From an uncultured Alistipes sp. (GTDB lineage: Bacteria > Bacteroidota > Bacteroidia > Bacteroidales > Rikenellaceae): a stretch of 64,000 nucleotides of DNA. The stretch covers positions 3,588 through 67,587 of the forward strand of contig CAUDHE010000002.1 in assembly GCA_958449275.1 (NCBI GenBank), read 5' to 3'. Of the stretch, positions 27,854 through 42,654 are shown in pieces. The position numbers and the translations under genes were made by a program. The notes under the pieces were generated by a model. The model was given only the letters and a program-made list of their open reading frames with translations, was not told the origin of the DNA and did no database searches. Positions within the stretch are counted from its first letter, which is position 1. Each line of letters starts with the position of its first letter.

Positions 27854-29320
27854 TTATTTGCGGCCTAACTTGAGATCGACGCCCACGCCCAGCACGCCGC
27901 TGCGACGTTTGTAGAGAGTGGTGCAATCGATGTCGCCCACCAAGGTCGCAACCTTGTTCGTCACCGACCGCTTGTCGTAAAGCGAGAAGAAATAACCCGC
28001 ATTGAGGCGCACTTTAGGGCTGATGTTCCATGCGCCTCCCAAACCGACCGAGGTCGCGCTGAGCACATGGTTGGTGTCGGTGAAATATGCGTCCGAAGTG
28101 CTGTATACGGTACGCTGCACACCTGCGCTCACGAGGAACTTCTTCGAAAGATCGTATTCGGCGCCGAACATGTACTCGGCCGTGCCGGCATCGATCAGTA
28201 TCTGCTTGTTGTCGACCATGTGGGCGTTCTTGTCGAAAAAGTAGTGGTACTCGGCCGTGAGACGCAAACGACCGTCGACGAACGACTTGCCCAGCGCGAG
28301 ACTCAGCATGGCGGGAATGTCGTTGGGGGTCTTGCCGCCGTCGGCATATGCGTTGCCCGCAGCCGCGCCCAGATCGTCGCGCTCGGTATGGTTGGTGAGG
28401 GTCATGGCCGTACGGAACTCGTAACGCGCCGAGGCCGACCAGCTTCCTTTGCGGAAATAGAGCGCCAGCGAGGGGTTGACGCCCCAGCCTTTCTGGATGC
28501 AGTCGACGTATTTGTCGTGCGTGAGGTCGGCATATGCCGCGGCCATACCCGCCAACTGCGGCTGTCCCTGAGCCTGCAACAGTCCCGACACGGTAGTCAG
28601 GAAGTCGTCGGCGCGAATCATGCTGCCGTCGAGACCGAGCGAGGGGGCCGAGGGGTTCACCATTATGTCGTTGATGTGTCCGTCGTATTTGTTGCGGGTG
28701 TAGTTGAGACGCACCATTGCCGAAGCCGACAGCCAATCGGTCAGGCGGTAGGCGAAGCCGAGTTGTCCCGACAGATTCATGGTCAGTCCGCGGAACGAAC
28801 AAGCCAGCGAGTATTGCGACGCCGACATTCCGTAAGCCTGTCCCAACGTCGAAATGGCCGCGGGAAGCACGGCGAACTGCTGCTCGAATGATCCGAGTCC
28901 TTCATTGAACTTCACGCGACCGCCGCCGCCCGACACTCCGGCCGAGAGGAACAGCGCCCAGCGATTATGTTTGTAAGTGACGTGGAGATTGGGTACCACG
29001 GGCGACCAGATCTTGCCCTCGAAAGTCTGCGAGCTGTTGCCCGGGGTCATGGCGCTCATGGCAAACGGCGCGTAGTCCATGCTCGTGGTGCGGGTCATGA
29101 ATGCGCTTTGGGCATTGAGCGACAGCATCCAGCCGTTGTCCATGAACGCGGTGCCGGCGGGATTGTAGTAGGGGGCGTCGGCATCGAGGGTGACGCCGCG
29201 CGTGATGTGGCGCAGGAAAGCCACGCTCTGATTGGTGTTGGTTAGAATGCCTCCGGCGAGCGCGCTGCCCGCGAGGGCGATCGAAGCCGCCGAGGCGAGG
29301 ATGAGTTTTCCGATTTTCAT
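27854..29320 (-). CDS. FadL/OmpP1/TodX-like outer-membrane transport barrel
   Basis: Signal peptide MKIGKLILASAASIALAGSALA, then GGILTNTNQSVAFLR...APYYNPAGTAF. Alternating beta-strand pattern to the C-terminus. Confidence 0.7.
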   Translation of the reverse strand: MKIGKLILASAASIALAGSALAGGILTNTNQSVAFLRHITRGVTLDADAPYYNPAGTAFMDNGWMLSLNAQSAFMTRTTSMDYAPFAMSAMTPGNSSQTFEGKIWSPVVPNLHVTYKHNRWALFLSAGVSGGGGRVKFNEGLGSFEQQFAVLPAAISTLGQAYGMSASQYSLACSFRGLTMNLSGQLGFAYRLTDWLSASAMVRLNYTRNKYDGHINDIMVNPSAPSLGLDGSMIRADDFLTTVSGLLQAQGQPQLAGMAAAYADLTHDKYVDCIQKGWGVNPSLALYFRKGSWSASARYEFRTAMTLTNHTERDDLGAAAGNAYADGGKTPNDIPAMLSLALGKSFVDGRLRLTAEYHYFFDKNAHMVDNKQILIDAGTAEYMFGAEYDLSKKFLVSAGVQRTVYSTSDAYFTDTNHVLSATSVGLGGAWNISPKVRLNAGYFFSLYDKRSVTNKVATLVGDIDCTTLYKRRSGVLGVGVDLKLGRK

Positions 29321-29828
29321 TTTGTGCGATAATTTATTGTCTGCGCGGGGATTGCTTTGCGCGATATCCGCCGCTCGGCACCGACGACCCGCAGGGCCGC
29401 CGTCGATGCGGATGCAAAAATGAACGAATATTTCCGATCCTCAAAAAATATGTGGTCTATCGACCCATCGGGGTATGAACAGACGGCTATGAGTGGCGTA
29501 AACATCGTATTCTGTGGCGAAAATACCCGCAAAATATTCTAAAAAGGAATATATATGTCCGAAATGGCGCAAAAAAAGAGGGACTTCCCGCCTCGCGACG
29601 AATCGGATCAGACGGCGTGCTTACGAAATATAACCTCCATGCCGCGGCCGCATTGCCGCTAAATCGAATCCGACGGCCCTTCGCCTGCGATCTCCGACAG
29701 CATTTGCGGATCCCGCCCCTCCGAGGAGTGGAACTCCGCGGTTGCGATCCGAATATGGAACTTCAGAGCATATAATAGCGCAGAAATAACGATTCGTAAT
29801 CAAAAGAGCGAAAAATTCTATATTTTTG

Positions 29829-29859
29829 TTTGATATCCGATTGGAATTTAATAACTTTG
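29829..29859 (+). promoter_or_regulatory. Promoter (-33 TTTG, -7 TAACTTTG) for kbl
   Basis: TTTG at 29829-29832, 19-nt spacer, TAACTTTG at 29852-29859. The ATG is at 29933. Confidence 0.55.
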
Positions 29860-29932
29860 TTTCAAATTACGGCGTCGAAACACATGCGCGCCGCACCCCG
29901 ATACTCGCAAAACCACAAAAAAACATAACGAT

Positions 29933-31120
29933 ATGTACGGAAAAATCAAAGAACATCTGCAAAAAGAGCTGGCCGACATCAAGGCTGCCGGCCTTTACAA
30001 AACCGAACGCGTAATAGAATCGCCGCAACGCGCCGAGATAGACGTGGCAGGCAAAAAAGTGCTCAACTTCTGCGCCAACAACTATCTGGGTCTGTCGGAT
30101 AACGCGCGCCTCATAGAGGCCGCCAAGAAGGCGATGGACGAGCGCGGATTCGGAATGTCGTCGGTACGTTTCATATGCGGCTGTCAGGATATCCACAAGG
30201 AGCTGGAGAAGGCCATCGCCGACTACTTCGGAACCGAGGATACCATCCTTTACGCCGCCTGCTTCGATGCCAACGGAGGTGTTTTCGAGCCGTTGCTCAC
30301 CGAGCAGGACGCCATCATATCCGACGCTCTCAACCATGCCTCGATCATCGACGGCGTGCGTCTGTGCAAGGCTGTGCGCTACCGCTACGCCAACGCCGAC
30401 ATGGATGAGCTGGAGGATTGCCTCAAGCGAGCTCAGGCGCAGCGTTTCCGCGTCATAGTAACCGACGGCGTGTTCTCGATGGACGGCAACGCCGCTCCTT
30501 TGGACAAGATCTGCGCATTGGCCAAGCAATACGACGCCTTGGTGATGGTAGACGAGTGCCACTCGGCAGGCGTGCTGGGCAAGACGGGCCGCGGCATCAC
30601 CGAACTTTACGATCTGCGCGGCGAGGTGGATATACTGACGGGCACCCTCGGCAAGGCTTTCGGAGGCGCGGTGGGCGGATTCACCACGGGACGCAAGGAG
30701 ATCATCGACATGCTGCGTCAGCGTTCGCGTCCCTATCTCTTCTCCAATTCGCTGCCCCCCGCAGTCGTGGGCGCCGGCATCGAGATGTTCAAGATGTTGG
30801 CCGAGAGCGACGAACTGCACGATCGTCTGGCCGCCAACGTCGAGTACTTCCGTTCGAAGATGATCGCCGCGGGATTCGACATCAAGCCTACCCAGTCGGC
30901 CATCTGCGCCGTGATGCTCTACGACGCCAAGCTGTCGCAGGACTTCGCGGCACGCTTGCAGGACGAGGGCGTATTCGTCACGGGATTCTACTATCCCGTC
31001 GTTCCCAAGGGCCAGGCACGTATTCGCGTGCAGGTTTCGGCAGGCCACACCGCTGAGCAGCTCGACCGCTGCGTGGAGGCTTTCGTTAAAATCGGCAAGG
31101 AGCTTGGAGTATTGAAATAA
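29933..31120 (+). CDS. kbl: Glycine C-acetyltransferase (2-amino-3-ketobutyrate CoA ligase)
   Basis: Collinear with E. coli Kbl: INFCANNYLGL, SVRFICG, ISDALNHASIIDGVRLCKA, GTLGKA (PLP lysine), RPYLFSNSL, YPVVPKGQARIR. Confidence 0.93.
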   Translation: MYGKIKEHLQKELADIKAAGLYKTERVIESPQRAEIDVAGKKVLNFCANNYLGLSDNARLIEAAKKAMDERGFGMSSVRFICGCQDIHKELEKAIADYFGTEDTILYAACFDANGGVFEPLLTEQDAIISDALNHASIIDGVRLCKAVRYRYANADMDELEDCLKRAQAQRFRVIVTDGVFSMDGNAAPLDKICALAKQYDALVMVDECHSAGVLGKTGRGITELYDLRGEVDILTGTLGKAFGGAVGGFTTGRKEIIDMLRQRSRPYLFSNSLPPAVVGAGIEMFKMLAESDELHDRLAANVEYFRSKMIAAGFDIKPTQSAICAVMLYDAKLSQDFAARLQDEGVFVTGFYYPVVPKGQARIRVQVSAGHTAEQLDRCVEAFVKIGKELGVLK

Positions 31121-31132
31121 AATAATTGTACT

Positions 31133-31603
31133 ATGGCAAAAACGACATTGGATTCTACGGATAAAAAGATACTTCGTTTTCTGATAAAGAACGCACGCAC
31201 GCCATTTCTCGAGATAGCCCGCGAATGCGGAATATCGGGTGCGGCCATTCACCAACGCATAAAAAAACTGGAGGATATGGGCGTGATTCAAGGCAGTCGT
31301 CTGGTGGTCGTTCCCAAATCGCTGGGATTCGACGTATGCGCGTTCATCAGCATTCGAGTGTCGGACATTACGCGGCAGGAGGATACCGTGCAACAGCTCA
31401 AAAAGATTCCCGAGATCGTGGAATGCCACTACATAACAGGTTCGTACAACCTGATGGTGAAACTCTATTGCATCGACAACGAACATCTGATGCGCACCAT
31501 TTTCGACCACATCCTGCACGTGCAGGGAGTGTCGAGTACTCAGACATACATCTCGCTCAACGAATCGTTCCAGCGCGAGATTTACGTCGATTGTCTCAAC
31601 TGA
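31133..31603 (+). CDS. Lrp/AsnC-family transcriptional regulator
   Basis: LDSTDKKILRFLIKNARTPFLEIARECGISGAAIHQRIKKLEDMGVI. Starts 12 nt after kbl. Confidence 0.88.
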   Translation: MAKTTLDSTDKKILRFLIKNARTPFLEIARECGISGAAIHQRIKKLEDMGVIQGSRLVVVPKSLGFDVCAFISIRVSDITRQEDTVQQLKKIPEIVECHYITGSYNLMVKLYCIDNEHLMRTIFDHILHVQGVSSTQTYISLNESFQREIYVDCLN

Positions 31604-31619
31604 CCCGACCGAGACGGCA

Positions 31620-31653
31620 AAGCGGGGAGGACATAAGATCTTCCCCGCTTTTC
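31620..31653. terminator. Bidirectional hairpin terminator between convergent genes
   Basis: 11-bp stem (one G-U pair) 31621-31631/31639-31649, flanked by A- and T-runs. Confidence 0.65.
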
Positions 31654-31659
31654 GTATGC

Positions 31660-32301
31660 CTATCTTATCAGTACCACCCGTTCTCGGGGCAGCTGACGCC
31701 CCTCGGGCAGGGTTATCCTCAGCACATGGTCCGTCGCGACTCCCTCATCGCCTTTCATGGCAGGTATCCACTCGGGAGCCTCCGACAACGCTTTGGTGAT
31801 GCGGCGCAGAAGCCGTCGGTCGGTAGCTTCGAGCACATCCTTCACCTTCACCGAACCGTCGGCTGCGACGGTGAACGATATTATGACCCGCGCCACGGGA
31901 TCGGAATCGTCCCACTTCACCCGATCGGCTATGTAACGACTGAATTTCATCGGTTCGCCATCCGCCTCGAAACGTGCGGGAGTGTCGTAACGCAACGTCA
32001 CCAATATCACCCCGTTGGCTGCTCGGTCGCCGTATTCTGCCACGGTGCGCTCGTCGGCAGGCAGCAACTCGTTGGACACTATGTCGGCGGGATCTATCTC
32101 CTTGACATCCTCTTCGCTCATGCGCACTCCGTTCACGATGTATATGGGTGTGCGATCGGCACGCGGGTTCTGAGCGACAGCCCCGTACGGGGCCGCCGAC
32201 CATGCCGCCGACACGAGCGTCGCGACGGCGAACGAACGGAGCCTCCGCAGAGGTATGCGGAGAGAGGCAATGCGAACGAATGTTTCGAAAACGATTCTCA
32301 T
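31660..32301 (-). CDS. Secreted protein with an N-terminal TonB-receptor plug-like motif and a TonB_C-like C-terminal domain
   Basis: PIYIVNGV...YGDRAANGVILVTL resembles the plug motif of the SusC in this window. The C-terminus ARVIISFTVAADGSVKVKDV...WIPAMKGDEGV is TonB_C-like. Confidence 0.65.
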   Translation of the reverse strand: MRIVFETFVRIASLRIPLRRLRSFAVATLVSAAWSAAPYGAVAQNPRADRTPIYIVNGVRMSEEDVKEIDPADIVSNELLPADERTVAEYGDRAANGVILVTLRYDTPARFEADGEPMKFSRYIADRVKWDDSDPVARVIISFTVAADGSVKVKDVLEATDRRLLRRITKALSEAPEWIPAMKGDEGVATDHVLRITLPEGRQLPRERVVLIR

Positions 32302-32304
32302 GGT

Positions 32305-33081
32305 TTACAGTTTAAAGTTATAATCCACGCCGAACACATGGTTGCACCGCTTCACGAGCGACCACTCCTTCATGGCGCCGCTACCCGCTTTGTAGCGGGC
32401 GCGATACTCGCGGTTGAAATGCACCATATAATAAAAATCCAATCTGTTGCGTCTGTCGATCTTGTACTCCGTGCCGAATGCCAACCGCACGCGATTGATG
32501 TAGTTGTCGTGCGAAAATGCGTCGGTTTTGAAGTTGCCGACAGGGGCGGGGGCATTCAGTGTAACGTATAGTTCGGCATAAACGTAGGGTTCCCAGTGCG
32601 AACGACGTATGTCGTAGGCGACTTTAAATCGCGAACGCAGCGTGACCAGCGGATCGGGCTTCTCGTATCGGTTCACCGAGTCGCTGCGGAATCGCATGCG
32701 CACCCTTTCGCGCAGCGACAGTTTCACGCGCCCCGCGCGATAAAGCCCCGTCACGTCGAAATTGACGCGATGGCGAATATCCCAGCCGTCGATCGGATCG
32801 CGGTCGTTCACCAGGCAGTATTCGGCCCCCAGCTTTAGGAACGGGATGGGTTTGTAGTTCACGCCGAGGCTCGAAACCACCTTCTCCACCGATCCGAAAT
32901 TGTCGCAGAGACGCAATTGCTCGCTCCATCCGATGCTTACGCTCCGTCCTATCGGAACGGTCAGTCCCGCACGGAAACGCCCCTGCACGTCGCTTGCCGA
33001 ACTCTCGGACAACGGCAAACTCTGGGCCGCGGCGGCAACGGCTGCCGCCGAAGCGATCAAAAGTGTGAGGATTTTCTTCAT
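32305..33081 (-). CDS. DUF2490-type outer-membrane beta-barrel protein
   Basis: Signal peptide MKKILTLLIASAAAVAAAAQ, alternating strands, C-terminal ...VDYNFKL. ATG at 33081 preferred over 33102. Confidence 0.7.
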   Translation of the reverse strand: MKKILTLLIASAAAVAAAAQSLPLSESSASDVQGRFRAGLTVPIGRSVSIGWSEQLRLCDNFGSVEKVVSSLGVNYKPIPFLKLGAEYCLVNDRDPIDGWDIRHRVNFDVTGLYRAGRVKLSLRERVRMRFRSDSVNRYEKPDPLVTLRSRFKVAYDIRRSHWEPYVYAELYVTLNAPAPVGNFKTDAFSHDNYINRVRLAFGTEYKIDRRNRLDFYYMVHFNREYRARYKAGSGAMKEWSLVKRCNHVFGVDYNFKL

Positions 33082-33110
33082 ATGTGGTTTGTTTATTATC
33101 ATTTGTTAAC

Positions 33111-33137
33111 GATGCGACCGATGCGACCGATGCGACC
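33111..33137. repeat. Tandem 9-bp repeat (gatgcgacc) x3 plus a degenerate fourth unit
   Basis: Read directly. Lies in the 85-nt spacer between the DUF4956 and DUF2490 genes. Confidence 0.95.
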
Positions 33138-33166
33138 GACTGCCGACCATGTGCCGGCACGAATCT

Positions 33167-33889
33167 CTACTCCACGAATCGGTCGGCCTTGGTCAGCATG
33201 CCGATACTGTCGCTCTCGCCCTCGTGCAATTTGTAATAGACCTTCACGAAAGCCACGTCGCGCAAGAAATCCACGTGTCCCACCTCCACCTTGTCGATCT
33301 TCAGTCCGAGACGCTGCTCCAGATCGGCCGTCAATTCGTCGCGACGTTCGGGCACGATCAGCTCGATGCGCTCGTAAAGCACCAGTTTGGCCGATGTGTG
33401 ACGCAGCAACAGACGTCTCTCCATAATCCACAGCAGTCCGAGAATCATCGCGTCGGCCGCCACGAGTTCGGCATACGAAATATTCAGGGCCAGACCGTTT
33501 ATCACCGCCGTCGAAATGATGATGAACAGATATGTCATTTCGCGTATGGGCACCGTTTCGGTTCGGTAGCGTATCACGCCGAATATGGCGAACAGTCCCA
33601 GCGTGAGGCCTATCTGCAACTTCACGTTCTCCATCAGGAATATGAGCAAAAACATGGCCGAGCTGAACAGCATGAACGTCAGCACATAATCGCGGCGACC
33701 GCTCTTGCGGTAGTAGCAGAAACGCACTATGAGCCACGATACCAGCAGGTTGAAAGCGAAGCGCATCAGCAGGTGGATGAGATTCTGCGTGTCGCACAAC
33801 GGTACCCCGAGAAAACTTATCTGCGAGGTGATGTCGTAGCCGAACTCTTCGGCTATCGAGGGGTCGAAATCCTGAAAATCCTGAATCAT
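33167..33889 (-). CDS. DUF4956 polytopic membrane protein
   Basis: LIHLLMRFAFNLLVSWLIVRFCYYRKSGRRDYVLTFMLFS...GLFAIFGVIRYRTE pattern. The start overlaps the VTC stop. Confidence 0.75.
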   Translation of the reverse strand: MIQDFQDFDPSIAEEFGYDITSQISFLGVPLCDTQNLIHLLMRFAFNLLVSWLIVRFCYYRKSGRRDYVLTFMLFSSAMFLLIFLMENVKLQIGLTLGLFAIFGVIRYRTETVPIREMTYLFIIISTAVINGLALNISYAELVAADAMILGLLWIMERRLLLRHTSAKLVLYERIELIVPERRDELTADLEQRLGLKIDKVEVGHVDFLRDVAFVKVYYKLHEGESDSIGMLTKADRFVE

Positions 33890-34758
33890 GCGTTATTCGT
33901 TTTACCGTTTATCGTTTTTATTATGCGTCGTATCTTTGCCTTGAAACGATTGCTCTTCACCCGAGGATTCGACAATGCCGTGCCGATGCAATATTTGCTG
34001 ACCTTCAGGGGGCGTATGCGCAACCTCCCGAGAATCCGTTTCATGGGCGACGGGGCCATGCCGTTCTGCTTCAGTTCCACGATGACCATCCCGCCCACGG
34101 AGACGGTCGCTCCGCAGTCGCCCGCGGCGACCGACAACGCACCGTCGGCAATGCCCGACGTGCAACGGTTTCTCGCGCCGTCAGCTCCGCCGCGGGCACG
34201 CACGTCGGTAAACGTCAGATTCCAGTCTATGGTAAGCCGTTCGGTACGCGCGTGATTCACCAGCGTTATCCGCTCGAAATTGGTCGCGAGGGCAGGCGTT
34301 ATCAATTCGGGAGGGTAGTTCGCTTTCGCCCGCAGAAACTCGGCCGCATCGGCATTGCGAGTCACCGCGGCGACGTCGGCGAAATCGATACGCATGCGGC
34401 GTTTTTTCGTCCGCCCCTTATTGGTCTTGTTCTTCACCTCTACGAAACTCACTCCCGACTCGACATAGGTGCGAGTGCGTATCTTCTGCCGCGCGAGCTT
34501 GCGATCGTGGTGCGACATATACATCCGTCTGTCGTCCGTATCGTAGTAGAGGGTCTCGTAACGGCATGCACGGCATTCGCCTATCGTCTGCACCGAATAG
34601 TCGTCCGCAGCCATGCGCAACATCTCCAGACACTGCTCCTCGCTGAGCACATACTTCGTGTCGACGCGATTCATCAGCTTTACGGCCGACATCTCGTCGA
34701 GACTCAGGGTCGGCATGTGCCGCCACAGCGTCAGGGTGTTAAGTTGTTCGAAGGTCAT
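33886..34758 (-). CDS. VTC-domain (polyphosphate-polymerase-like, triphosphate-tunnel fold) protein
   Basis: VKLMNRVDTKYVL, YETLYYDTDD, RQKIRTRTYVESGVSFVEVKNK, ERLTIDWNLTF, VIVELKQ, KVSKYCIG. Confidence 0.75.
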   Translation of the reverse strand: MTFEQLNTLTLWRHMPTLSLDEMSAVKLMNRVDTKYVLSEEQCLEMLRMAADDYSVQTIGECRACRYETLYYDTDDRRMYMSHHDRKLARQKIRTRTYVESGVSFVEVKNKTNKGRTKKRRMRIDFADVAAVTRNADAAEFLRAKANYPPELITPALATNFERITLVNHARTERLTIDWNLTFTDVRARGGADGARNRCTSGIADGALSVAAGDCGATVSVGGMVIVELKQNGMAPSPMKRILGRLRIRPLKVSKYCIGTALSNPRVKSNRFKAKIRRIIKTINGKTNNA

Positions 34759-34812
34759 GACGGAAAATTTCGAATAGGACGCCGACGGACGAACGTCGCC
34801 ATTACGATCGGA

Positions 34813-35235
34813 TCAATCCTCGAATACGTATTCGAAGACCTTCACCGTATAGAGTTTGCCGTTGGGCAGATAATTATATTGCTTGCGCTTGGTGCCGTCG
34901 TCGTTGTATTCGTACTTGCGTATGCGCATCGGTTTGTTACGCTCGTCGTACACCACCTCGCGCACTACCATATCAGTTTCGGGATCGTATTCGCACGTGA
35001 CGCGCTTCGTTTGTCCGAACTGGTTGTATTCGATCTCCTCGATTTTTCGACCCTGCGAGTCGTAAACGGTCACATGGTCGAGCCAACGGCTTTTCTTGGC
35101 AGAATCGGTATTCCACTCCTTAACGGTTAGATTCTTGCGTTTGGCGCGCTTCGCCAGCGTCTCGGGACTCAACGCCTGCGCGGCAAGTCCCTGCGCGAAA
35201 AGAATCGCCGCAGCGATCGTAAGAAGTCGTTTCAT
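34813..35235 (-). CDS. Small secreted protein with YD-like beta-hairpin repeats
   Basis: Signal peptide MKRLLTIAAAILFAQGLAAQA. Repeats VYDSQGRKIEEIEYN / EYDPETDMVVREVVYD / YEYNDDGTKRKQYNY. Confidence 0.6.
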   Translation of the reverse strand: MKRLLTIAAAILFAQGLAAQALSPETLAKRAKRKNLTVKEWNTDSAKKSRWLDHVTVYDSQGRKIEEIEYNQFGQTKRVTCEYDPETDMVVREVVYDERNKPMRIRKYEYNDDGTKRKQYNYLPNGKLYTVKVFEYVFED

Positions 35236-35307: not shown

Positions 35308-35315
35308 CAAATTTA
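35308..35315 (-). promoter_or_regulatory. -7 box (TAAATTTG) upstream of the YD-like/VTC gene string
   Basis: Plus-strand CAAATTTA, 73 nt upstream of the ATG at 35235. Confidence 0.4.
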
Positions 35316-35425: not shown

Positions 35426-36427
35426 TCAGAACAGATATTTATCGCTCTTTATGCGGTCGAAGAGCATGCGTACGTCGCGCCAAACCTCGCTGCCGAGCGT
35501 GGTGCCCACGATCTCGATGACTTTGCCCGCCGCGACGGCTCCCAGTGTGCCGCACTGACGCAGCGACAGGTCGTCGCACAGTCCCGCGAGGAATCCGGCA
35601 GCATAGAAGTCGCCCGCGCCCGTGGTGTCGACGCGCTTGGCGGCAGCCATGATGCCGACGTGCACCACCTCGCTCGCGCGTTTTATCAATGCGCCCTTCA
35701 TGCCGATCTTCACGACCGCCAGATCGCATATTTCCGATATGGCCTGCAAAGCGTTGATAGGCTCGCGCTCGCCCGTGAATGCCACGGCTTCGTCCTCGTT
35801 GGCGAACACCATGTCGACGTGGCGCGCGATGAGATCGTGCAGGAAATCGCGGTTTTCGGCCACCACGTTGAAGCTTGCCATGTCGATGGCCACTTGCAAA
35901 CCCGCAGCCTTGGCTTCGGACGCCGCCTTGCGTATGAGTTCGCGGTTCTGCACCAGATAGCCCTCGATGTAGAGACAGTCGTAGCCGTTCAGAAGCTCGC
36001 GGTCGACTTGGTCGGGAGTCATCTCCAACGCAGCTCCGAGGTGGGTGAGCATGGTGCGTTCGCCGTCGGGCGAGACCAGCGATATGCACTTGCCCGAACG
36101 TCCCTCGCCGCGGAATATGTGCGGCTCGATATTCAGATTGCGCAGCGCCTGCTCGAAAAAGTCGCCCGTGGTGTCGCGTCCGACCTCGCCGATGAATCCC
36201 GTTTCGCATCCCATCGACGCCAGCGCGCGGATGGTGTTGTCGGCCGATCCGCCCAGCGAGAGCGAATAAGGCTGCCCCGCCACGGCTTTCGACACTTCGG
36301 TTTGCAGATCGGCATCCACCAGATTCATCGAACCTTTGGCCAGTCCGTATTCGGTCAACACGCTGTCGTCCGACAGGTTGACCAGCATGTCGGTAAGGGC
36401 ATTTCCCATGCCCGCGATTTTCTTCAT
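35426..36427 (-). CDS. PfkB-family carbohydrate/nucleoside kinase (adenosine-kinase-like)
   Basis: GGSADNT and DTTGAGDFYAAGFLAGL signature motifs. Confidence 0.85.
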   Translation of the reverse strand: MKKIAGMGNALTDMLVNLSDDSVLTEYGLAKGSMNLVDADLQTEVSKAVAGQPYSLSLGGSADNTIRALASMGCETGFIGEVGRDTTGDFFEQALRNLNIEPHIFRGEGRSGKCISLVSPDGERTMLTHLGAALEMTPDQVDRELLNGYDCLYIEGYLVQNRELIRKAASEAKAAGLQVAIDMASFNVVAENRDFLHDLIARHVDMVFANEDEAVAFTGEREPINALQAISEICDLAVVKIGMKGALIKRASEVVHVGIMAAAKRVDTTGAGDFYAAGFLAGLCDDLSLRQCGTLGAVAAGKVIEIVGTTLGSEVWRDVRMLFDRIKSDKYLF

Positions 36428-36456
36428 CGGAAACAGTAGGGTTAGGCCTGCAAAGG

Positions 36457-37434
36457 CTATATTGACAATATCTTCACTATGTCGAGATCCTTCAGATCGA
36501 GTTGCGACGTATGCGCCACGGCCTTCTTGAACGGTACGTAGACCAGTTCGCCGTTCTTTATGCCGATCATGACGTTACGCTGGCCCTCGGTCAGAGCCTC
36601 TATGGCCGTGGCTCCCATCTTCGATGCGAGAATACGATCCTTCGCCGTGGGCGAACCGCCGCGCTGAAGGTGTCCGAGAATGGTCACGCGGGCGTCGAAC
36701 TCGGGAAACTCCTTTTTGATGCGCTCGGCCAGTCCGAGCGCACCGCCCGTCGAAGGATTCTCAGCGACGAGGACGATCGCCGAATTTTTGCTCTTGCGGA
36801 ACCCGTTGTGAATCAGATCGGCCAACTGGTCGACCTCGGTTTCGCGCTCGGGGATGATGGCGGCCTCGGCGCCCGATGCGATAGCGCCGTTAAGAGCCAG
36901 ATAACCCGCCGTGTGCCCCATCACCTCGACGAAAAAGAGGCGTTCGTGGCTGGTCGCCGTGTCGCGCAACTTATCGACGGCTTCGATTATGGTGTTGAGT
37001 GCGGTATCGTAACCTATGGTCTCGTCGGTGCCGTCCAGATCGTTATCGATGGTTCCGGGCAACCCCACGATGGGGACGTCGAATTCGTCGGCGAAAGTCT
37101 GCGCTCCCGTCAGCGATCCGTCGCCGCCGATGACCACCAGCGCGTCGATACCTGCGGCCTTCATGTTCTCGTAGGCCTGGCGACGGCCCTCCTCGGTGCG
37201 GAACTCCTTGCTGCGCGCCGTTTTGAGAATAGTGCCGCCCTGCTGTATGATGTTGCTGACGCTCTGCGATTTGAACTCCACTATCTCGTTGGTCACCAGA
37301 CCGTGGTAACCGCGCATGATACCCTTGACCTTGTAGCCGTTGTAGATGGCGGTTCGCGTCACCGCGCGGATGGCCGCATTCATACCCGGAGCGTCGCCGC
37401 CCGAGGTGAGAACTCCGATACATTTAATTGCCAT
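36457..37434 (-). CDS. pfkA: ATP-dependent 6-phosphofructokinase
   Basis: [44 protein letters not shown]. Confidence 0.95.
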
Positions 37435-37460
37435 AATCGAAAATGCTTAATGATTCCTTA

Positions 37461-37468
37461 CAAAGGTA
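37461..37468 (-). promoter_or_regulatory. -7 box (TACCTTTG) for pfkA
   Basis: Plus-strand CAAAGGTA, 27 nt upstream of the pfkA ATG. Confidence 0.5.
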
Positions 37469-37488
37469 AGTATTTTTCGAAATACGGC

Positions 37489-37523
37489 AAAAAAAGCGGC
37501 GCCCCGCAATGGAACGCCGCCTC
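37489..37523 (-). terminator. Terminator after susD-like gene
   Basis: Minus strand reads gcggcg-(13-nt loop)-cgccgc, followed by T7. Confidence 0.5.
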
Positions 37524-37544
37524 AGCCGTCGGGCCGAGAGAGTA

Positions 37545-39431
37545 TTAATAACCCGGGTTCTGAACCAGATTGGGGTTGATGTTGATCTGATCTTGCGGAA
37601 TGGCCAGCCAGTAGTTGCGCGGCGTCTCGAAAGTAATCACCTGAGCGCCCTCGTAAACGTCGGTCACCTTGTAGAACTCCTCGGCGGTCTGACCTGCGAG
37701 GTTCCAGCCCTGAGCCGACTTGCCCAGGTAGTCGCCCGCGATCTTCCAACGGCGCAGGTCGTGATACCAGCGGCCTTCGAACATGAACTCGATCATGCGC
37801 TCCTGACGGATGACCTTCACCAGTTCGTCGCCGCTCGGGATGCCGCCCACCTTGGCCCACGATGTCTCGAAGTTGGGCAGACCCGCACGGTTGCGTACCT
37901 TGTTGAGGTAGGCGAGTCCCTTTGCGCTGAGCGTACCCGTGTACTCGGCCTCGGCCTCGGCATAGTTGAGGTAAGGCTCGGCGAAACGGATGTAGGGATA
38001 AGAGAATTTGTTATAGGTGAACGATTTGCTCGAAACGGTATACGAATCGGCCTTCGAGATCCACTTCTTCACGTAATATCCCGTGCAGCTCTGATACTCG
38101 TTGGTGTTGTTGCCGTCGTTCTGCTGCTCCTCGCCGCGGCGACATTTCAGAATGATGGTTTTGCCGTTTATGTCGTACTCGCCGCGGTCGTAACCTATCG
38201 AGGCATAGAAACGGGGCTCGCGATTGTGGTGCAGCATGACGGTCTCGCCTGCCTCGTCGAGCCGGTAGAGATCGATATCCTTCGTTTCGGGATCGACGTC
38301 CATAGGCAGACCGTTCTTCGAGAGATAGATTTGGGCGGCTGCCAACGTCGGTACGAAATAGCCGCGGAATCCGTCCGCACTGTAAGACGAATAGCCTACG
38401 CGCGGAGCCATGTTCTTGGCATTGTAGCTGATTTGGCTCTGGTTATTGTACGAGAAGAGGTGCTCTTCGCTGTTGTAGAACTGCGACGAACCGTCATTGC
38501 CGATAAATGCGGCACGGTAGTTATTGTAACCTCTCTCGAACTCGTCGTCGCCCTTGTCGCTCAATTCGAAGAGCTTGAATCCGTCGGCTTCACCCTGCAC
38601 GATGGCCTCCTCGGCGGCGTCCATAGCCTTTTTCCACAGCTCCTTGTCGTAGGTCTGCGAAATGAGGTGCGTTCCGTCGGGGTTGGTGAAGTCGCCGTAC
38701 CATTCCGAGTTGCCGTTCATCTGGGGCGATGCCGCGAAGAGCCAGGCGCGGGCCTTAAGAGCCTTGGCCAAGGTCTTGGTGGCACGGCCGTAGTAGAGCG
38801 GATCCTGAACTTCGGGCAGATATTTGGCCGCCTCGTCGTACATGTCCGAAATGAACTGCGTGCACTCCAGATATGTCGATCGGGGAACGTTCAGATTCTC
38901 GTCCTGCGACAATTCGTGAGTGACCAGAATGATGGGACCGTAATACTCCAGCAGCGTCTGGTGAAGATATGCGATGGCCCAGTAAGCCTCGCCCTTCCAC
39001 ATGTTTTTCTCCTCGTCGGTGGCATCGGGCACCTTGTCGGCGTTGGCGATCAGGTTGTAGGCGTTGCGGATGCCCTCCCACATGCGGTAGTCGGTCAGCG
39101 CGCCTGCGGGATACGAAGTCGCGCCCTGCGACCACATGGCCACGTAGGTGTTCGAAGGGCTCTCGTAATTGTTATATACCAAGCTCTTCCATTTGAAATA
39201 ACGGACCGAGCCGAAGAATCCCGACATCATGTCGCCGTTGCATATCTCGAGCGACGACTGGAAATAATAGCGGTTGGGCATGTACCAGTAGAGCGAACAA
39301 GCGAATTTGTCCGTCTGTATGTGGGTCTTGTAGAGGTCGTCGATGGTCGCCTTACCCTCGGGAATCACGTCGAGGAAGTTGCACGAGACGAGGCTCAACG
39401 ACAACGCTAACGATATAAATATTTTTTTCAT
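37545..39431 (-). CDS. SusD/RagB-family nutrient-binding outer-membrane lipoprotein
   Basis: Lipoprotein signal MKKIFISLALSLSLVSC, 628 aa, placed 13 nt downstream of a SusC-like gene. Confidence 0.9.
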   Translation of the reverse strand: MKKIFISLALSLSLVSCNFLDVIPEGKATIDDLYKTHIQTDKFACSLYWYMPNRYYFQSSLEICNGDMMSGFFGSVRYFKWKSLVYNNYESPSNTYVAMWSQGATSYPAGALTDYRMWEGIRNAYNLIANADKVPDATDEEKNMWKGEAYWAIAYLHQTLLEYYGPIILVTHELSQDENLNVPRSTYLECTQFISDMYDEAAKYLPEVQDPLYYGRATKTLAKALKARAWLFAASPQMNGNSEWYGDFTNPDGTHLISQTYDKELWKKAMDAAEEAIVQGEADGFKLFELSDKGDDEFERGYNNYRAAFIGNDGSSQFYNSEEHLFSYNNQSQISYNAKNMAPRVGYSSYSADGFRGYFVPTLAAAQIYLSKNGLPMDVDPETKDIDLYRLDEAGETVMLHHNREPRFYASIGYDRGEYDINGKTIILKCRRGEEQQNDGNNTNEYQSCTGYYVKKWISKADSYTVSSKSFTYNKFSYPYIRFAEPYLNYAEAEAEYTGTLSAKGLAYLNKVRNRAGLPNFETSWAKVGGIPSGDELVKVIRQERMIEFMFEGRWYHDLRRWKIAGDYLGKSAQGWNLAGQTAEEFYKVTDVYEGAQVITFETPRNYWLAIPQDQININPNLVQNPGY

Positions 39432-39444
39432 TGTTCCGTTTCGA

Positions 39445-42400
39445 TTAGAAGTGATACTGAAGACCTATCTTGACCGTGCGCTGGAGCGGGTACGAGAGAC
39501 CGTTGCCGTTGCCCTTTTCGGGATCCCAGCAATCGAACGGCGAGATGGTGAAGAGGTTGCTGCCGGCGGCATAGATGCGGAAATTCCGTATCGACCAGCC
39601 CAGCTCGATGCTCTTCAGACGCAGGTAGTTCGACTTGCGCAGATAGTAGGTCGAGGCCTGAGTGTTGTTGTCGCTCGTGATCGAGGTCAGACGCGGATAC
39701 TCGGCATCGGCGCGGTTGTTGTCCCACGACCAGTGGTTGTCGGCGATGTACTGCGTGATACCGAATCCCGAGTTCGACGAAGTGGCGAACGGATGGTGGT
39801 TGTACATGCGCAACTGCACGTTGCCCGTACCTTGGAACATGAACGAGAAATCCCACGCCTTGTATTTCACGTTACCGCCGAAACCGTACTGTATCTCGGG
39901 AATGTAGGGCGTGTCGTCCCACACGTAGTCGTTGGCGTCGATCACATTGTCGCCGTTGATATCCTTGTATTTGATATCGCCCACCGAGTAGGTGCCGAAG
40001 CGCTGTTCGGGGCTTGAGTCGATCTCCTCCTGCGAAGTGAACAGTCCCTCGGCCACGAGTACGTTGTGAGCCTGCATGGGATGGCCGATCTTCGAGAGGT
40101 GCTTGTTCTTCTCGGGATACTCGGGCTCGTCCATGGCCTTCACCTCGTTGTGGGCGTAGGTGAACGTTCCGCGGACTCCTACGGTGAGATTCTCGTTTAC
40201 CACCTTGTTATAGCTTGCCGAGATGTCGACTCCTCGGTTATCGACCTCGCCGAGGTTGGCATAAGGCACTGTGGCACCCATACCTGCCGTGGCCGAGAGC
40301 GAATTGCGCTGCATGAAGATGTTGTAGCGGTGCTCGGTGAAGTAGTCCACGGCCAGAGTGAGCGAGTGGAACAGCTCCAGGTCGACACCCACATTCATCT
40401 TGTTGGCGATCTCCCAGGTGGCATCGGCATTACCGTAGGTGCTGATGTAACCCGCACCCTTGAAAGCGAAGTTGTTGCCGAAGTAGTAGCCGCGGTTGCC
40501 CATGTTCACGGAGGTGAGGTAGGGGAAACGGATACTCAGGGCGTCGTTACCCACCTGACCGTACGATCCGCGCAATTTGAGGTTGCTCACCACCTCTTTC
40601 AGCGGCGCGAAGAACTTCTCGTTCGAGATGTTCCAACCCAAAGCCGCCGAGGGGAAGAATCCGAAGCGCTTGCCCGAAGCGAAGTTCTCCGAACCGTTGT
40701 AACCGAAGTTGCCCTCGATGTAGTAGCGGCGATCGTAGTTGTAGGTGACGCGGCCCGCCAGACCCTGCTCGCGGAATGGCAGCAACTGCTCCTCCGACGA
40801 TCCGGTGGCGTTGTTCACCTTCTCCTTCATGTGGTATACGAAGTCGGCGCCCACGTCGTGCTTGCCGAATTTGCGCGAATACTTCACCGAAGCCTGCAAC
40901 GACCACTCGTGATAGCCGCTGTGACCCACGCTGCTGGTGAGGTAGGTGTTACCCTCGGTGCCGATGGTCGACGACGTGTAGTTGAAAGTGCCGTCGTCGT
41001 TCATCACCCAGTCGTCGTCCACACGGAAATAGTAGGGTGTCATGTAACGGTTGGTCGCTGCGTAAGAGTAGTTGTAGAACGACACCAGCGCATTGGCCGA
41101 CAGACCCTTGGTAACCATGTCGAGATTCTGATCCACGGTGAATGCCGCGGTCATGTACGAGTAGAAACGCTTCTTGTAACCTGCACTCATGCGGGCATAG
41201 GGGTTCAGCTCGGTCGAACCCGTATCCCACGAGTTGTTGTTACCGTAACGCACGAACGTGTCGCCGTCCTCGGCCGGCAGCACCGCGGGGAAACGCGCGG
41301 GGTTGGCACGCATCACCCAATAGAACAGGTCGCTGGTCGACTCGTAGGGAGTGTTGTTGTATTGCAGCTGAGTGTTGAGTTTGAGCGAAACCTTGGTCGT
41401 CTTGGTCATCATGGCCGACACGTTGCTCTGGAACAGATACTTCTGGTTGTTCATCGTAATGTCGAGCGGAGTCTCCTTCGGCTTCTTCAGAATACCGTTC
41501 TCGTTGAAAATCGAGGCGTTGAGGAAGTAGTTCACTCGCTGACCGCCGCCACGCATCGAGACGTTGAAACGCTGGTTGACGGCGAAGTTCTTGAACAACA
41601 TGCTGTACCAGTCGTTGTCGGGGAATACGTAAGGGTTCAGATGAGCGCGCGTGCCCTCGATCTTCTCCGACGAATAGAACGGCACGTACTGCGTGCCGGT
41701 GGCGCGCGCCTCGTTATACTTGGCCTCGTTGAAAAGCTCCATGTAGGTCACCGCGTCGGCCACGTCCTGCACCTTGGTAGGCATCGAGAATGTGTTGTCG
41801 ACGCTTACGTTCACCGACAGCTTCTCCGAGTTGCGGCCCTCCTTGGTAGTGATGATTATGACGCCGTTTGCTCCGCGCGAACCGTACAATGCGGTGGCGG
41901 TGGCATCCTTCAGCACCGAGAACGACTCGATAGATTCGGGCGGGATGTTGCCCAACATGGTAGAGGTGATCTCCACGCCGTCGAGCACCAGCAAGGCGCC
42001 CGTGTTCGATCCGAAGGTCGAGATACCGCGCACATAGAAATTGGCGCTGTCGTAACCCGGTTCGCCCGAGCTTTGAGTGGCGATCACGCCCGCGATGTTA
42101 CCCGCGAAACCCGTGGTGAGGTTACTCGAGGTCACCACCAGTTCGCTCGGTTTCACCGACTGCACGGCACCCACCAGCGACTCCTTCTTCTGGGTACCGA
42201 ATCCCACCACGACCACTTCGTCGATCTTGGTCTGCTGCTCGATCATGGTCACCAGCGTGAACAGATAGGGATCGCCCACCGAGATCTCCTTGGGATCGTA
42301 ACCTATCATTTCGAAAACTATGGTCTTGGCATCGGCGGGCACCTTGATCGAATATGCTCCGTTCACGTCCGATGAAACGCCGACTGCGGGATTCTCCTTC

Positions 42401-42654
42401 ACATAGACCGAAACGCCGACCAACGGTTTGTTGTCGCTCGATCCGATGATGAGACCCTTCAGAACCCCTTTTTCGTTTCGGTCCTGCGGCTCTGCGACAG
42501 TCGCCGATTTCGACGGCTTCGCGGTCCGATCCTTCGCTTCGGCGGCAAATGCCGTGCGAGCACCTGCCCCGACCAGAATGCTCGCGCCCAGCATCAGCGC
42601 CGCAAGGCGCCGAACCGAAAAACGAGACACTCGTTCAAAGAAAAAATTCCTCAT
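39445..42654 (-). CDS. SusC/RagA-family TonB-dependent outer-membrane transporter
   Basis: 1069 aa. CarboxypepD_reg-like LKGLIIGSSDNKPLVGVSVYV, plug motif LVLDGVEI...YGSRGANGVIIITTK, C-terminal ...GLQYHF. No STN/anti-sigma signalling domain. Confidence 0.93.
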   Translation of the reverse strand: MRNFFFERVSRFSVRRLAALMLGASILVGAGARTAFAAEAKDRTAKPSKSATVAEPQDRNEKGVLKGLIIGSSDNKPLVGVSVYVKENPAVGVSSDVNGAYSIKVPADAKTIVFEMIGYDPKEISVGDPYLFTLVTMIEQQTKIDEVVVVGFGTQKKESLVGAVQSVKPSELVVTSSNLTTGFAGNIAGVIATQSSGEPGYDSANFYVRGISTFGSNTGALLVLDGVEITSTMLGNIPPESIESFSVLKDATATALYGSRGANGVIIITTKEGRNSEKLSVNVSVDNTFSMPTKVQDVADAVTYMELFNEAKYNEARATGTQYVPFYSSEKIEGTRAHLNPYVFPDNDWYSMLFKNFAVNQRFNVSMRGGGQRVNYFLNASIFNENGILKKPKETPLDITMNNQKYLFQSNVSAMMTKTTKVSLKLNTQLQYNNTPYESTSDLFYWVMRANPARFPAVLPAEDGDTFVRYGNNNSWDTGSTELNPYARMSAGYKKRFYSYMTAAFTVDQNLDMVTKGLSANALVSFYNYSYAATNRYMTPYYFRVDDDWVMNDDGTFNYTSSTIGTEGNTYLTSSVGHSGYHEWSLQASVKYSRKFGKHDVGADFVYHMKEKVNNATGSSEEQLLPFREQGLAGRVTYNYDRRYYIEGNFGYNGSENFASGKRFGFFPSAALGWNISNEKFFAPLKEVVSNLKLRGSYGQVGNDALSIRFPYLTSVNMGNRGYYFGNNFAFKGAGYISTYGNADATWEIANKMNVGVDLELFHSLTLAVDYFTEHRYNIFMQRNSLSATAGMGATVPYANLGEVDNRGVDISASYNKVVNENLTVGVRGTFTYAHNEVKAMDEPEYPEKNKHLSKIGHPMQAHNVLVAEGLFTSQEEIDSSPEQRFGTYSVGDIKYKDINGDNVIDANDYVWDDTPYIPEIQYGFGGNVKYKAWDFSFMFQGTGNVQLRMYNHHPFATSSNSGFGITQYIADNHWSWDNNRADAEYPRLTSITSDNNTQASTYYLRKSNYLRLKSIELGWSIRNFRIYAAGSNLFTISPFDCWDPEKGNGNGLSYPLQRTVKIGLQYHF

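Follow-up and report, generated by a model that had tools for sequence, protein, structure and literature searches.

Can a bacterium make polyphosphate (polyP) with an enzyme of the kind found in the eukaryotic VTC complex and pass it out of the cytoplasm? The question is raised by five co-directional open reading frames (ORFs) on the minus strand, at 31660–35235, of a 64,000-nucleotide (nt) stretch of DNA from an uncultured Alistipes sp. (contig CAUDHE010000002.1), called the window here. In the order of transcription they encode a secreted repeat protein (gene 1), a VTC-domain enzyme (gene 2), a DUF4956 membrane protein (gene 3), a DUF2490 β-barrel (gene 4) and a secreted protein that resembles parts of the TonB transport machinery (gene 5). 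A preliminary description had put the five together as a candidate envelope-spanning system, perhaps for polyP. The reading preferred here is that the operon encodes a split-subunit bacterial analogue of the eukaryotic VTC polyP synthase/translocase, and we put its probability at roughly 45%. The argument starts from what the genomes demonstrate directly – the gene content, the compartments of the proteins, and the conservation of gene order and of active-site residues.

The VTC enzyme

The first argument for a VTC-type polyP synthase is the enzyme itself, with a full-length VTC domain whose sole meaningful matches in the PDB are yeast Vtc2 and Vtc4. Gene 2 matches the Pfam VTC family (PF09359) at E=4.3e-30, with 105.4 bits against a cut-off of 23, over model positions 1–233 of 235. 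This is the only domain found in the protein, which has no signal peptide and no transmembrane (TM) or other hydrophobic segment. A search with the single sequence against PDB sequences gave no match; a profile built from 61 VTC sequences matched Vtc2 (3g3o, E=3.6e-5) and Vtc4 (3g3q, E=0.0044), with the others at chance level. The triphosphate-tunnel assignment in the preliminary description is borne out by these matches.

The second argument is that the positions expected to coordinate triphosphate do not vary. In Vtc4 these are K200, R264, R266, K281 and R361, and their mutation lowers polyP in yeast (bioRxiv 10.1101/2023.01.27.525886). The first four align with K35, R94, R96 and K109 of the window enzyme, and the fifth, aligned via Vtc2, with R163. 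These correspondences are secure, because counting along the printed Vtc4 alignment gives the published numbering. In an alignment of 64 VTC proteins, which takes in proteins of Aminobacter, Nitratireductor and Deinococcus at about 30% identity, 22 charged or polar positions are invariant in every sequence, including K35, R94, R96, K109, R163, E228/K230 and S254-K255. The basic tunnel residues expected of such an enzyme are therefore present, at five invariant positions equivalent to those of Vtc4. The lysine of the S457-K458 pair is the sole active-site difference between active Vtc4 and the inactive Vtc2 and Vtc3 (bioRxiv 10.1101/2023.01.27.525886). Based on the order of residues and the full-length Pfam match, S254-K255 would be the counterpart of S457-K458, and E228 that of the metal ligand E426.

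The window enzyme also has a 38-amino-acid (aa) insertion rich in G, A and D (approximately residues 187–224; window 34087–34200, just ahead of the ‘VIVELKQ’ strand) and a basic C-terminal tail. Most Bacteroidales homologues are without the insertion. In a related Alistipes clade (homologues P0020, P0072, P0053, P0093, P0065, P0083 and P0064), the insertion site holds from about 0 to 8 tandem octapeptides of the approximate form G-[DN]-[TM]-D-M-N-[GS]-[CR], and the number of copies accounts for VTC lengths of 264, 297, 305, 313, 321, 329, 345 and 353 aa. The octapeptide loop of these Alistipes enzymes is Asp-rich and variable in copy number. At the DNA level, the insertion of the window enzyme contains no repeat by Tandem Repeats Finder.

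The DUF4956 membrane partner

Gene 3 matches Pfam DUF4956 (PF16316) at E=1.1e-53, with 181.9 bits against a cut-off of 30.6. Five TM helices are predicted from hydropathy and counts of Lys and Arg per loop, in keeping with the polytopic membrane protein first described. The N-terminal 36 residues contain no Lys or Arg and 7 Asp or Glu; there are 4 Lys/Arg in the loop at 60–68 and 3 in the loop at 107–118. The positive-inside rule places the N-terminus outside and the arginine loop inside, so that the predicted topology has a periplasmic N-terminus, with R65, the R107/R109/R116 motif and the C-terminal domain in the cytoplasm. According to the secondary structure of a low-confidence AlphaFold2 (AF2) model, a β-α-β-β unit makes up the C-terminal 80 residues.

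The most conserved motif of the family comprises G98, L99, R107-Y108-R109-T110-E111 and R116-E117 (loop RYRTExxPIRE). In the yeast VTC channel, rings of basic residues surround the cytoplasmic mouth. The conserved, basic and presumably cytoplasmic face of DUF4956 recalls these rings, although only as an analogy, and the placement of its most conserved arginines is a third argument for a VTC-like partnership. DUF4956 is also the most conserved protein of the operon, with at least 90% identity across many Alistipes clusters. Conservation within the pair is uneven: in comparable relatives, the adjacent VTC enzyme falls to about 83% identity, the level of its best non-identical relatives, and then to 58%.

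A preprint on Streptococcus intermedius describes a DUF4956 homologue as four TM helices and an ACT domain, with a link to MgtC in CDD (10.1101/2024.04.20.589940). In our comparison the weak fold matches of the C-terminal domain are to ACT-type regulatory domains, all at E>1 and from a poor model. Kinship with MgtC was not reproduced – hhalign against E. coli YhiD gave a probability of 0.2%, and there is no match to Pfam MgtC.

DUF4956 proteins of the Bacteroidales have an acidic, conserved N-terminal extension (DPSIAEEFG..., window 33782–33889) that is predicted to be periplasmic. The proteins of Deinococcus and the Alphaproteobacteria lack it. In five of seven loci without a gene for the repeat protein, the DUF4956 N-terminus is short or unrelated, by a crude motif test in which ORF starts are uncertain. 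The extension may be a docking site for the repeat protein; the correlation is loose and is not relied on here.

Conservation of gene order

Gene order was compared in a scan of one genome per species, from which the best 80 of at least 586 confirmed stretches with a VTC relative were taken. All are from Bacteroidales except one contig (L065) labelled Lachnospiraceae. Four loci found by exact-protein look-up brought the total to 84, and the 79 with enough flanking sequence were counted, after each of the five window proteins had been used for an iterated profile search of their ORFs.

DUF4956 follows VTC in 78 of the 79 loci, and the sole exception retains a DUF4956 fragment. DUF2490 is found in 75 and the repeat protein in 72. 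Most often the repeat protein comes first, followed by VTC, DUF4956 and DUF2490, with junctions that often overlap or are a few nt long. The flanks vary: in L001, the five genes have ribosomal protein genes on one side and a GH125 gene on the other, in place of the PfkB and AsnC genes of the window. The conserved core in Bacteroidales is four genes, and its neighbourhood is strongly conserved across the order. The repeat protein, which had seemed peripheral, belongs to this core. The VTC family as a whole forms more than 3,700 clusters at 50% identity, and the operon, which is very widespread, is present in dominant gut Bacteroidales.

That the five genes are mere neighbours with no joint function is scarcely credible. 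The gaps of 54 and 85 nt between genes would allow it, but dozens of species-level genomes have the block in this order and orientation beside flanking genes that are unrelated, which is far from chance. Stop/start overlaps are frequent, and the VTC/DUF4956 pair is kept across phyla. For the four core genes, chance adjacency is in effect refuted.

In two loci of one Alistipes lineage (L002:11798–12637 and L003:2762–3637), there is an Abi_2 gene, of the abortive-infection type, directly after DUF4956, in the usual place of DUF2490. The L002 copy of DUF4956 is shortened, at 212 aa.

A second alternative is that the enzyme makes or cleaves some other phosphoanhydride, such as a nucleotide signal or a phosphorylated lipid or glycan carrier, with DUF4956 as an effector or as a partner that presents the acceptor; a defence pair would be one case of this. 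Cyclases and RNA and thiamine triphosphatases are also members of the triphosphate tunnel metalloenzyme (TTM) superfamily, an enzyme beside a small TM protein is a layout seen in some signalling and defence pairs, and the Abi_2 genes just described would fit. This different chemistry is nevertheless unlikely. None of the five proteins has a meaningful match to the PADLOC defence models. Across Bacteroidales the genes do not have a patchy distribution: they are nearly universal, keep their synteny and are highly conserved. The enzyme also appears to keep the whole set of polyP-coordinating residues.

Accessory genes and distant lineages

Clustering of the flanking ORFs of the loci identified the genes that accompany the core, and distant examples came from a collection of annotated plasmids. 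A β-helix lipoprotein with a Cthe_2159 domain (PF14262) adjoins the core in about 29 loci, and a 241-aa CarboxypepD_reg-like lipoprotein does so in 15. The Cthe_2159 family is reported to bind cellulose and polygalacturonic acid, a polyanion. A CotH lipoprotein is beside the core in one of the 84 loci (L066). Many Bacteroidales operons (L039:7940–9472, L043:8792–9517 and about 40 other loci) open with the Cthe_2159 lipoprotein, the CarboxypepD_reg-like lipoprotein or both; the window has neither.

Outside the Bacteroidales, the order is secreted CotH, VTC, DUF4956 in Deinococcus, and DUF4956, VTC, phytase-like esterase in Aminobacter, with an S8 peptidase nearby. In Gram-positive pel operons, CotH, VTC, DUF4956 and DUF4832 genes lie downstream (S. 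intermedius SIR_1591-1594; 10.1101/2024.04.20.589940). The NELoc-2 locus of Clostridium perfringens has two copies of VTC with a 222–226-aa membrane protein, beside CotH.

In these loci, VTC and DUF4956 are an invariant two-gene core across phyla that has repeatedly been joined to extracytoplasmic proteins. The adjacency of the pair in Bacteroidales, Aminobacter, Nitratireductor, Deinococcus and Gram-positives is a fourth argument for a split-subunit synthase, and the nature of the variable partners is a fifth. Every accessory protein inspected has a signal peptide or a lipobox – CotH, the phytase-like esterases, the S8 peptidase, the Cthe_2159 and CarboxypepD_reg-like lipoproteins, DUF4832 (from the literature), DUF2490, the repeat protein and the gene 5 protein. 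This points to a product that is used outside the cytoplasm.

Proposed mechanism and its main rival

In the proposed mechanism, the soluble VTC enzyme at the cytoplasmic face of the inner membrane would move the γ-phosphate of a nucleoside triphosphate (NTP) onto a polyP chain. DUF4956 would be its obligate membrane partner, probably as an oligomer. The arginine loop and cytoplasmic C-terminal domain of DUF4956 would dock the enzyme and receive the chain, and its helices would pass the chain to the periplasmic side. There, the repeat protein, rich in Lys/Arg and Tyr, may bind or chaperone the polymer, and the DUF2490 barrel, about the size of OmpG, would let it out to the cell surface or the medium. 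In Alistipes only, the gene 5 protein would bind or gate the barrel. The polyP product, the role of DUF4956 as a conduit, the direction of export, and the parts given to the periplasmic and outer-membrane proteins are what we infer.

Several observations weigh against this mechanism. At the position of Tyr359 in Vtc4, the window enzyme has F161 (Phe in 51, Tyr in 12 and Cys in one of the 64 sequences), and the Y359F mutation lowers the polyP content of yeast (bioRxiv 10.1101/2023.01.27.525886). A C-terminal VTC sub-profile aimed at E426 and S457-K458 gave chance matches only, and none to Vtc4. The AF2 model of DUF4956 is poor, with a predicted local distance difference test (pLDDT) score of 55 from a shallow alignment of at least 77% identity, and a Foldseek search with this poor model gave no match below E=1. 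Against PDB sequences, the DUF4956 profile gave chance matches only, with no VTC chain among them; up to E=10, the protein matches its own Pfam family alone and no eukaryotic VTC membrane domain. The proposed mechanism also leaves the energy source and the path across the periplasm unspecified. Deletions of the homologues in S. intermedius had no phenotype in aggregation or Pel assays (10.1101/2024.04.20.589940). In agreement with the preliminary description, which knew of no assigned function for bacterial VTC/DUF4956 pairs, the literature searched gave no experimental function, only in-silico remarks.

The Alphaproteobacteria supply a further point on this side. In Nitratireductor, the order is DUF4956, VTC, a PHO4/PiT phosphate transporter and a phytase-like esterase, and PiT and phytase-like neighbours fit uptake and storage as well as they fit export. 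Phosphate scavenging and storage is the main rival, and a serious one, although we consider it somewhat unlikely. The barrel and a periplasmic protein would import phosphate or organophosphate, and a VTC enzyme anchored by DUF4956 and regulated by its ACT-like domain would make polyP in the cytoplasm, with no export. The phosphate genes behind the pair favour it: the PHO4/PiT transporter and secreted esterase in Nitratireductor, and the phytase-like esterase in Aminobacter. So does the S. intermedius preprint, which suggests cytoplasmic polyP and a membrane protein of four TM helices and an ACT domain (10.1101/2024.04.20.589940), as do the weak ACT-type fold matches of the DUF4956 C-terminal domain, all at E>1. 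Storage leaves the links to CotH, Cthe_2159, DUF4832 and the S8 peptidase unexplained. A cytoplasmic polymerase also needs no membrane anchor; PPK1 and PPK2 polymerise without a dedicated polytopic partner. Finally, no other protein of the set is as conserved as DUF4956, which keeps at least 90% identity in many Alistipes, and this is unusual for a mere anchor.

For the analogue of the VTC synthase/translocase, a wider claim can be framed, which is doubtful: that VTC and DUF4956 are a dedicated, PPK-independent polyP synthase-exporter, that the repeat protein and barrel of the Bacteroidales carry the polymer to the surface or the gut lumen, and that polyP serves secreted partners elsewhere. 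If this is true, exported polyP in other phyla could be the phosphoryl donor for extracellular CotH kinases, which lack a supply of ATP outside the cell, or it could be a surface polyanion bound by β-helix lipoproteins of the Cthe_2159 type. It would also explain how bacteria release polyphosphate.

The repeat protein and the DUF2490 barrel

The proteins of genes 1, 4 and 5 have N-terminal signal peptides, and that of gene 2 does not. The compartments are those of the preliminary description – a cytoplasmic enzyme, a polytopic inner-membrane partner, periplasmic proteins with signal peptides, and an outer-membrane barrel. Its assignments of VTC, DUF4956 and DUF2490 hold, with scores above the profile thresholds; TonB_C and Plug in gene 5 fall below the curated ones.

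Gene 1 has a Sec-type signal peptide (MKRLLTIAAAILFAQGLAAQ) without a lipobox Cys. It had been called a secreted YD-like repeat protein, of which secretion and repeats stand. It is not a true YD-repeat protein by the TIGR01643 model (E=0.1, 13.2 bits against a cut-off of 15.8), and passes Pfam DUF2963 instead (E=2.4e-6, 27.3 bits against 22.6). The mature part, 120 residues, contains 24 K+R, 21 D+E and 10 Tyr. Its homologues form a highly conserved alignment, and the gene 1 profile found no solved relative in the PDB.

Gene 4 matches Pfam DUF2490 (PF10677) at E=4.7e-22, with 79.1 bits against a cut-off of 29.8, and begins with the signal peptide MKKILTLLIASAAAVAAAAQ, which agrees with the signal-peptide barrel first described. 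In the literature the family is listed among putative porins, as TC 1.B.81, and no function has been established for it (PMC4827864). Its profile matches OmpG weakly (E=0.008), and the protein is similar in size to this 14-stranded porin.

Gene 5, a lineage-specific accessory

The preliminary description saw in gene 5 a piece of a TonB-receptor plug followed by a TonB C-terminal domain. Scores against hidden Markov models are below threshold for both, with TonB_C at E=0.0068 (17.3 bits, cut-off 24.6) and Plug at E=0.096 over model positions 57–107 only. There is a local match of residues 48–102 to the SusC/RagA model TIGR04056 (E=1.5e-8), which covers positions 150–202 of 981 and scores 33 bits against a cut-off of 368, and a match to the SusC signature (E=1.9e-5). 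The AlphaFold model has a mean pLDDT of 77, and above 85 for residues 50–200. It matches TonB C-terminal domains (6i97_D, E=7e-4; target-normalised TM-scores of 0.5–0.69) and also the SusC/RagA chains 5fq6 and 6sln. These fold matches support the two-part description. The model supports an N-domain (residues ~50–105) resembling the C-terminal half of the SusC/RagA plug, and a C-domain (~120–198) with the fold of a TonB C-terminal domain.

The plug-like domain directly follows the signal-peptide-like N-terminus, and there is no membrane anchor and no Pro-rich spacer. Without the anchor and linker of a real TonB, the protein cannot transduce energy, and it was ruled out as a TonB. It was also ruled out as a SusC/RagA receptor, as it has 213 aa with a partial plug and no 22-strand barrel. 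There are about 415 detectable homologues, inconsistently labelled ‘energy transducer TonB’ or ‘TonB-dependent receptor’, and some have a precomputed PF03544 (TonB_C) match on record.

Gene 5 is present in 16 of the 79 loci, 15 of them in Alistipes/Rikenellaceae. In these 15, it directly follows a DUF2490 gene with a gap of 2–23 nt or an overlap of 4 nt. The sixteenth match (L048), from an unclassified member of the Bacteroidales, is a 500-aa protein whose gene lies 1.5 kb upstream of the operon. Three Alistipes metagenome-assembled genomes (L007, L008 and L009) have two DUF2490 paralogues in tandem, and the second of them ends in a 4-nt overlap with the gene 5 homologue. This arrangement suggests that gene 5 is paired with the DUF2490 barrel, and it is from this tight coupling only that a role as barrel partner or gate is suggested. 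Gene 5 had been counted among the core parts of the device; it is a lineage-specific accessory.

Both pieces of gene 5, one like a SusC plug and one with a TonB_C fold, are parts found in import machinery, which bears on a third alternative, in which the direction is reversed. PolyP or triphosphate from the environment would enter through the barrel and DUF4956, and the tunnel enzyme would hydrolyse it or carry out polyP:NDP (nucleoside diphosphate) phosphotransfer. Many triphosphate-tunnel enzymes of the CYTH/TTM superfamily are hydrolases, and the Phe at the position of Tyr359 could signal an altered chemistry. Set against these points, the closest profile relatives of the enzyme are VTC proteins rather than hydrolase TTMs, and the Lys that separates active Vtc4 from its inactive paralogues appears to be kept. 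Gene 5 is absent from most loci and has no TonB anchor, so import would not be energised, and neither binding-protein/ABC (ATP-binding cassette) nor TonB-ExbBD genes are linked to the operon in the loci examined. Import and breakdown of polyP is quite unlikely.

Locus boundaries and flanking genes

The five ORFs lie at the coordinates first described, and a second, independent assembly with identical genes gives gene calls of 140, 290, 240, 258 and 213 aa. The boundaries are supported because these are the same five lengths. The tight junctions are also as claimed: DUF4956 starts within the VTC stop (ATGA), an overlap of 4 nt (33886–33889); DUF2490 ends at 32305 and gene 5 starts at 32301, a gap of 3 nt; and the remaining gaps are 54 nt (genes 1 and 2) and 85 nt (genes 3 and 4). 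Longer mechanical ORFs for genes 1 and 4 (165 and 265 aa) are due to alternative start codons upstream. That of gene 1 starts at a TTG within the promoter-like motif TAAATTTG; the ATG at 35235 (140 aa) is backed by homologues and the independent gene calls.

The motif TAAATTTG is 73 nt upstream of this ATG, within the 190 nt that separate gene 1 from the PfkB kinase gene. We take TAnnTTTG to be the Bacteroidetes -7 promoter consensus, and label the motif on that assumption; the promoter scan was of the sigma-70 type, with the Bacteroidetes type outside its coverage. Past gene 5 there is a terminator-like hairpin, common to gene 5 and the convergent AsnC-type regulator gene, which the scan reports on the plus strand at 31624–31645. 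The scan reported no terminator-like site on the minus strand within the cluster. That the five genes are bounded by the promoter-like motif and the hairpin, with no such internal site on their strand, is a last argument for reading them as one system. The features are collected in Table 1. The flanking genes appear unrelated to the operon, and they are not kept with it in other genomes. The 325-aa flanking ORF is presumably 6-phosphofructokinase-like, judged by eye only, and the 1069-aa ORF is a putative SusC, as first described.

Table 1. Features of the operon and its flanks in the window
Feature	Position	Strand	Basis or remark
Promoter-like motif TAAATTTG	35308–35315	-	Fits the consensus TAnnTTTG; pattern match only
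Gene 1, 140-aa secreted β-hairpin-repeat protein (DUF2963/YD-like)	34813–35235	-	Pfam DUF2963
Gene 2, 290-aa cytoplasmic VTC-domain triphosphate-tunnel enzyme	33886–34758	-	Pfam VTC
Gene 3, 240-aa DUF4956 inner-membrane protein	33167–33889	-	Pfam DUF4956
Gene 4, 258-aa DUF2490 outer-membrane β-barrel	32305–33081	-	Pfam DUF2490
Gene 5, 213-aa secreted plug-like/TonB_C-like accessory protein	31660–32301	-	Local SusC/RagA match and fold
Terminator-like GC-rich hairpin, GCGGGGA...TCCCCGC then TTTG	31622–31648	-	12 nt past the gene 5 stop
Flank: 488-aa PorV/PorQ-like outer-membrane barrel, glycine C-acetyltransferase (Kbl), AsnC-type regulator	27854–31603		
Flank: PfkB-family kinase, 325-aa ORF, ORF pair of 628 aa (37545–39431) and 1069 aa (39445–42654)	35426–42654		

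Comparison with known systems

Three of the proteins resemble parts of better-known systems. Like TonB, gene 5 has a C-domain modelled with the TonB_C fold, and like SusC/RagA, it has a counterpart of the last ~50 plug residues, with the SusC/RagA signature among them. Unlike them, this 213-aa protein is soluble and periplasmic, and has no anchor, Pro-rich linker, 22-strand barrel or TonB box. DUF4956 is laid out like MgtC/SapB/YhiD, with 4–5 TM helices and then a small cytoplasmic ACT-like domain, but profile comparison did not reproduce the homology. MgtC has been linked to phosphate and ATP homeostasis (10.1101/2024.04.20.589940). DUF2490, a separate family (TC 1.B.81), is about as large as the 14-stranded monomeric porin OmpG, which its profile matches weakly.

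The association of VTC with DUF4956, and with CotH, has already been noted in Gram-positives. The pel-operon genes of S. intermedius and the NELoc-2 genes of C. perfringens are the same pair, likewise linked to secreted proteins, and the S. intermedius VTC protein was judged catalytically competent from a model (10.1101/2024.04.20.589940). The window differs from these loci in that it has no CotH, DUF4832 or nearby pel genes, and instead has DUF2490, the repeat protein and the TonB_C-like protein. The authors of the Gram-positive work did not propose DUF4956 as a translocating partner. The Gram-negative form has one mention in the literature searched, a transcriptome table that lists Bacteroides thetaiotaomicron BT3498-BT3499 as DUF4956 and DUF2490 proteins, and no functional study, BT3496-BT3498 included. 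An active exporter could explain why, in the biofilm and virulence loci of Gram-positives, secreted CotH kinases travel with VTC and DUF4956. Should storage be the right reading instead, the operon would still give gut commensals a phosphate-homeostasis module that had gone unrecognised.

The closest comparison is the eukaryotic VTC complex (Saccharomyces cerevisiae Vtc4/Vtc3/Vtc1). The catalytic Pfam family is the same, the equivalents of K200, R264, R266, K281 and R361 are kept, the S-K and E-x-K motifs are invariant in the bacterial enzyme, and the enzyme is genetically tied to a small multi-helix membrane protein with conserved basic residues that are predicted to lie on its cytoplasmic face. 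The differences are in architecture. The window enzyme has no SPX domain, and its catalytic domain is separate and soluble, with no fused TM helices. Its membrane partner is DUF4956, with no detectable relation to the three-helix VTC/DUF202 domain or to Vtc1. It has Phe at the position of Tyr359, and its setting is the envelope of a Gram-negative, where periplasmic and outer-membrane parts are added. The likeness to the eukaryotic complex holds only in outline and fails in architecture.

Bacterial polyP is attributed almost wholly to PPK1 and PPK2, and VTC-type synthesis with transit through a membrane is regarded as eukaryotic. The presumed product of the window enzyme, polyP from NTP, is that of the PPKs, which belong to unrelated families with unrelated folds. 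The polyP of the PPKs forms granules in the cytoplasm, and they are not known to have a dedicated channel-like partner or envelope genes of their own. Next to these systems, the operon is probably a bacterial machine that makes polyP and passes it out of the cytoplasm, as judged from gene content and conserved residues. If the bacterial VTC enzyme is active with its unrelated membrane partner, it would be a second bacterial route to polyP and, if export is real, an independent solution to threading a highly charged polymer through a membrane. As such, the operon is a genetically tractable candidate for the placement of polyP outside the cytoplasm in bacteria.

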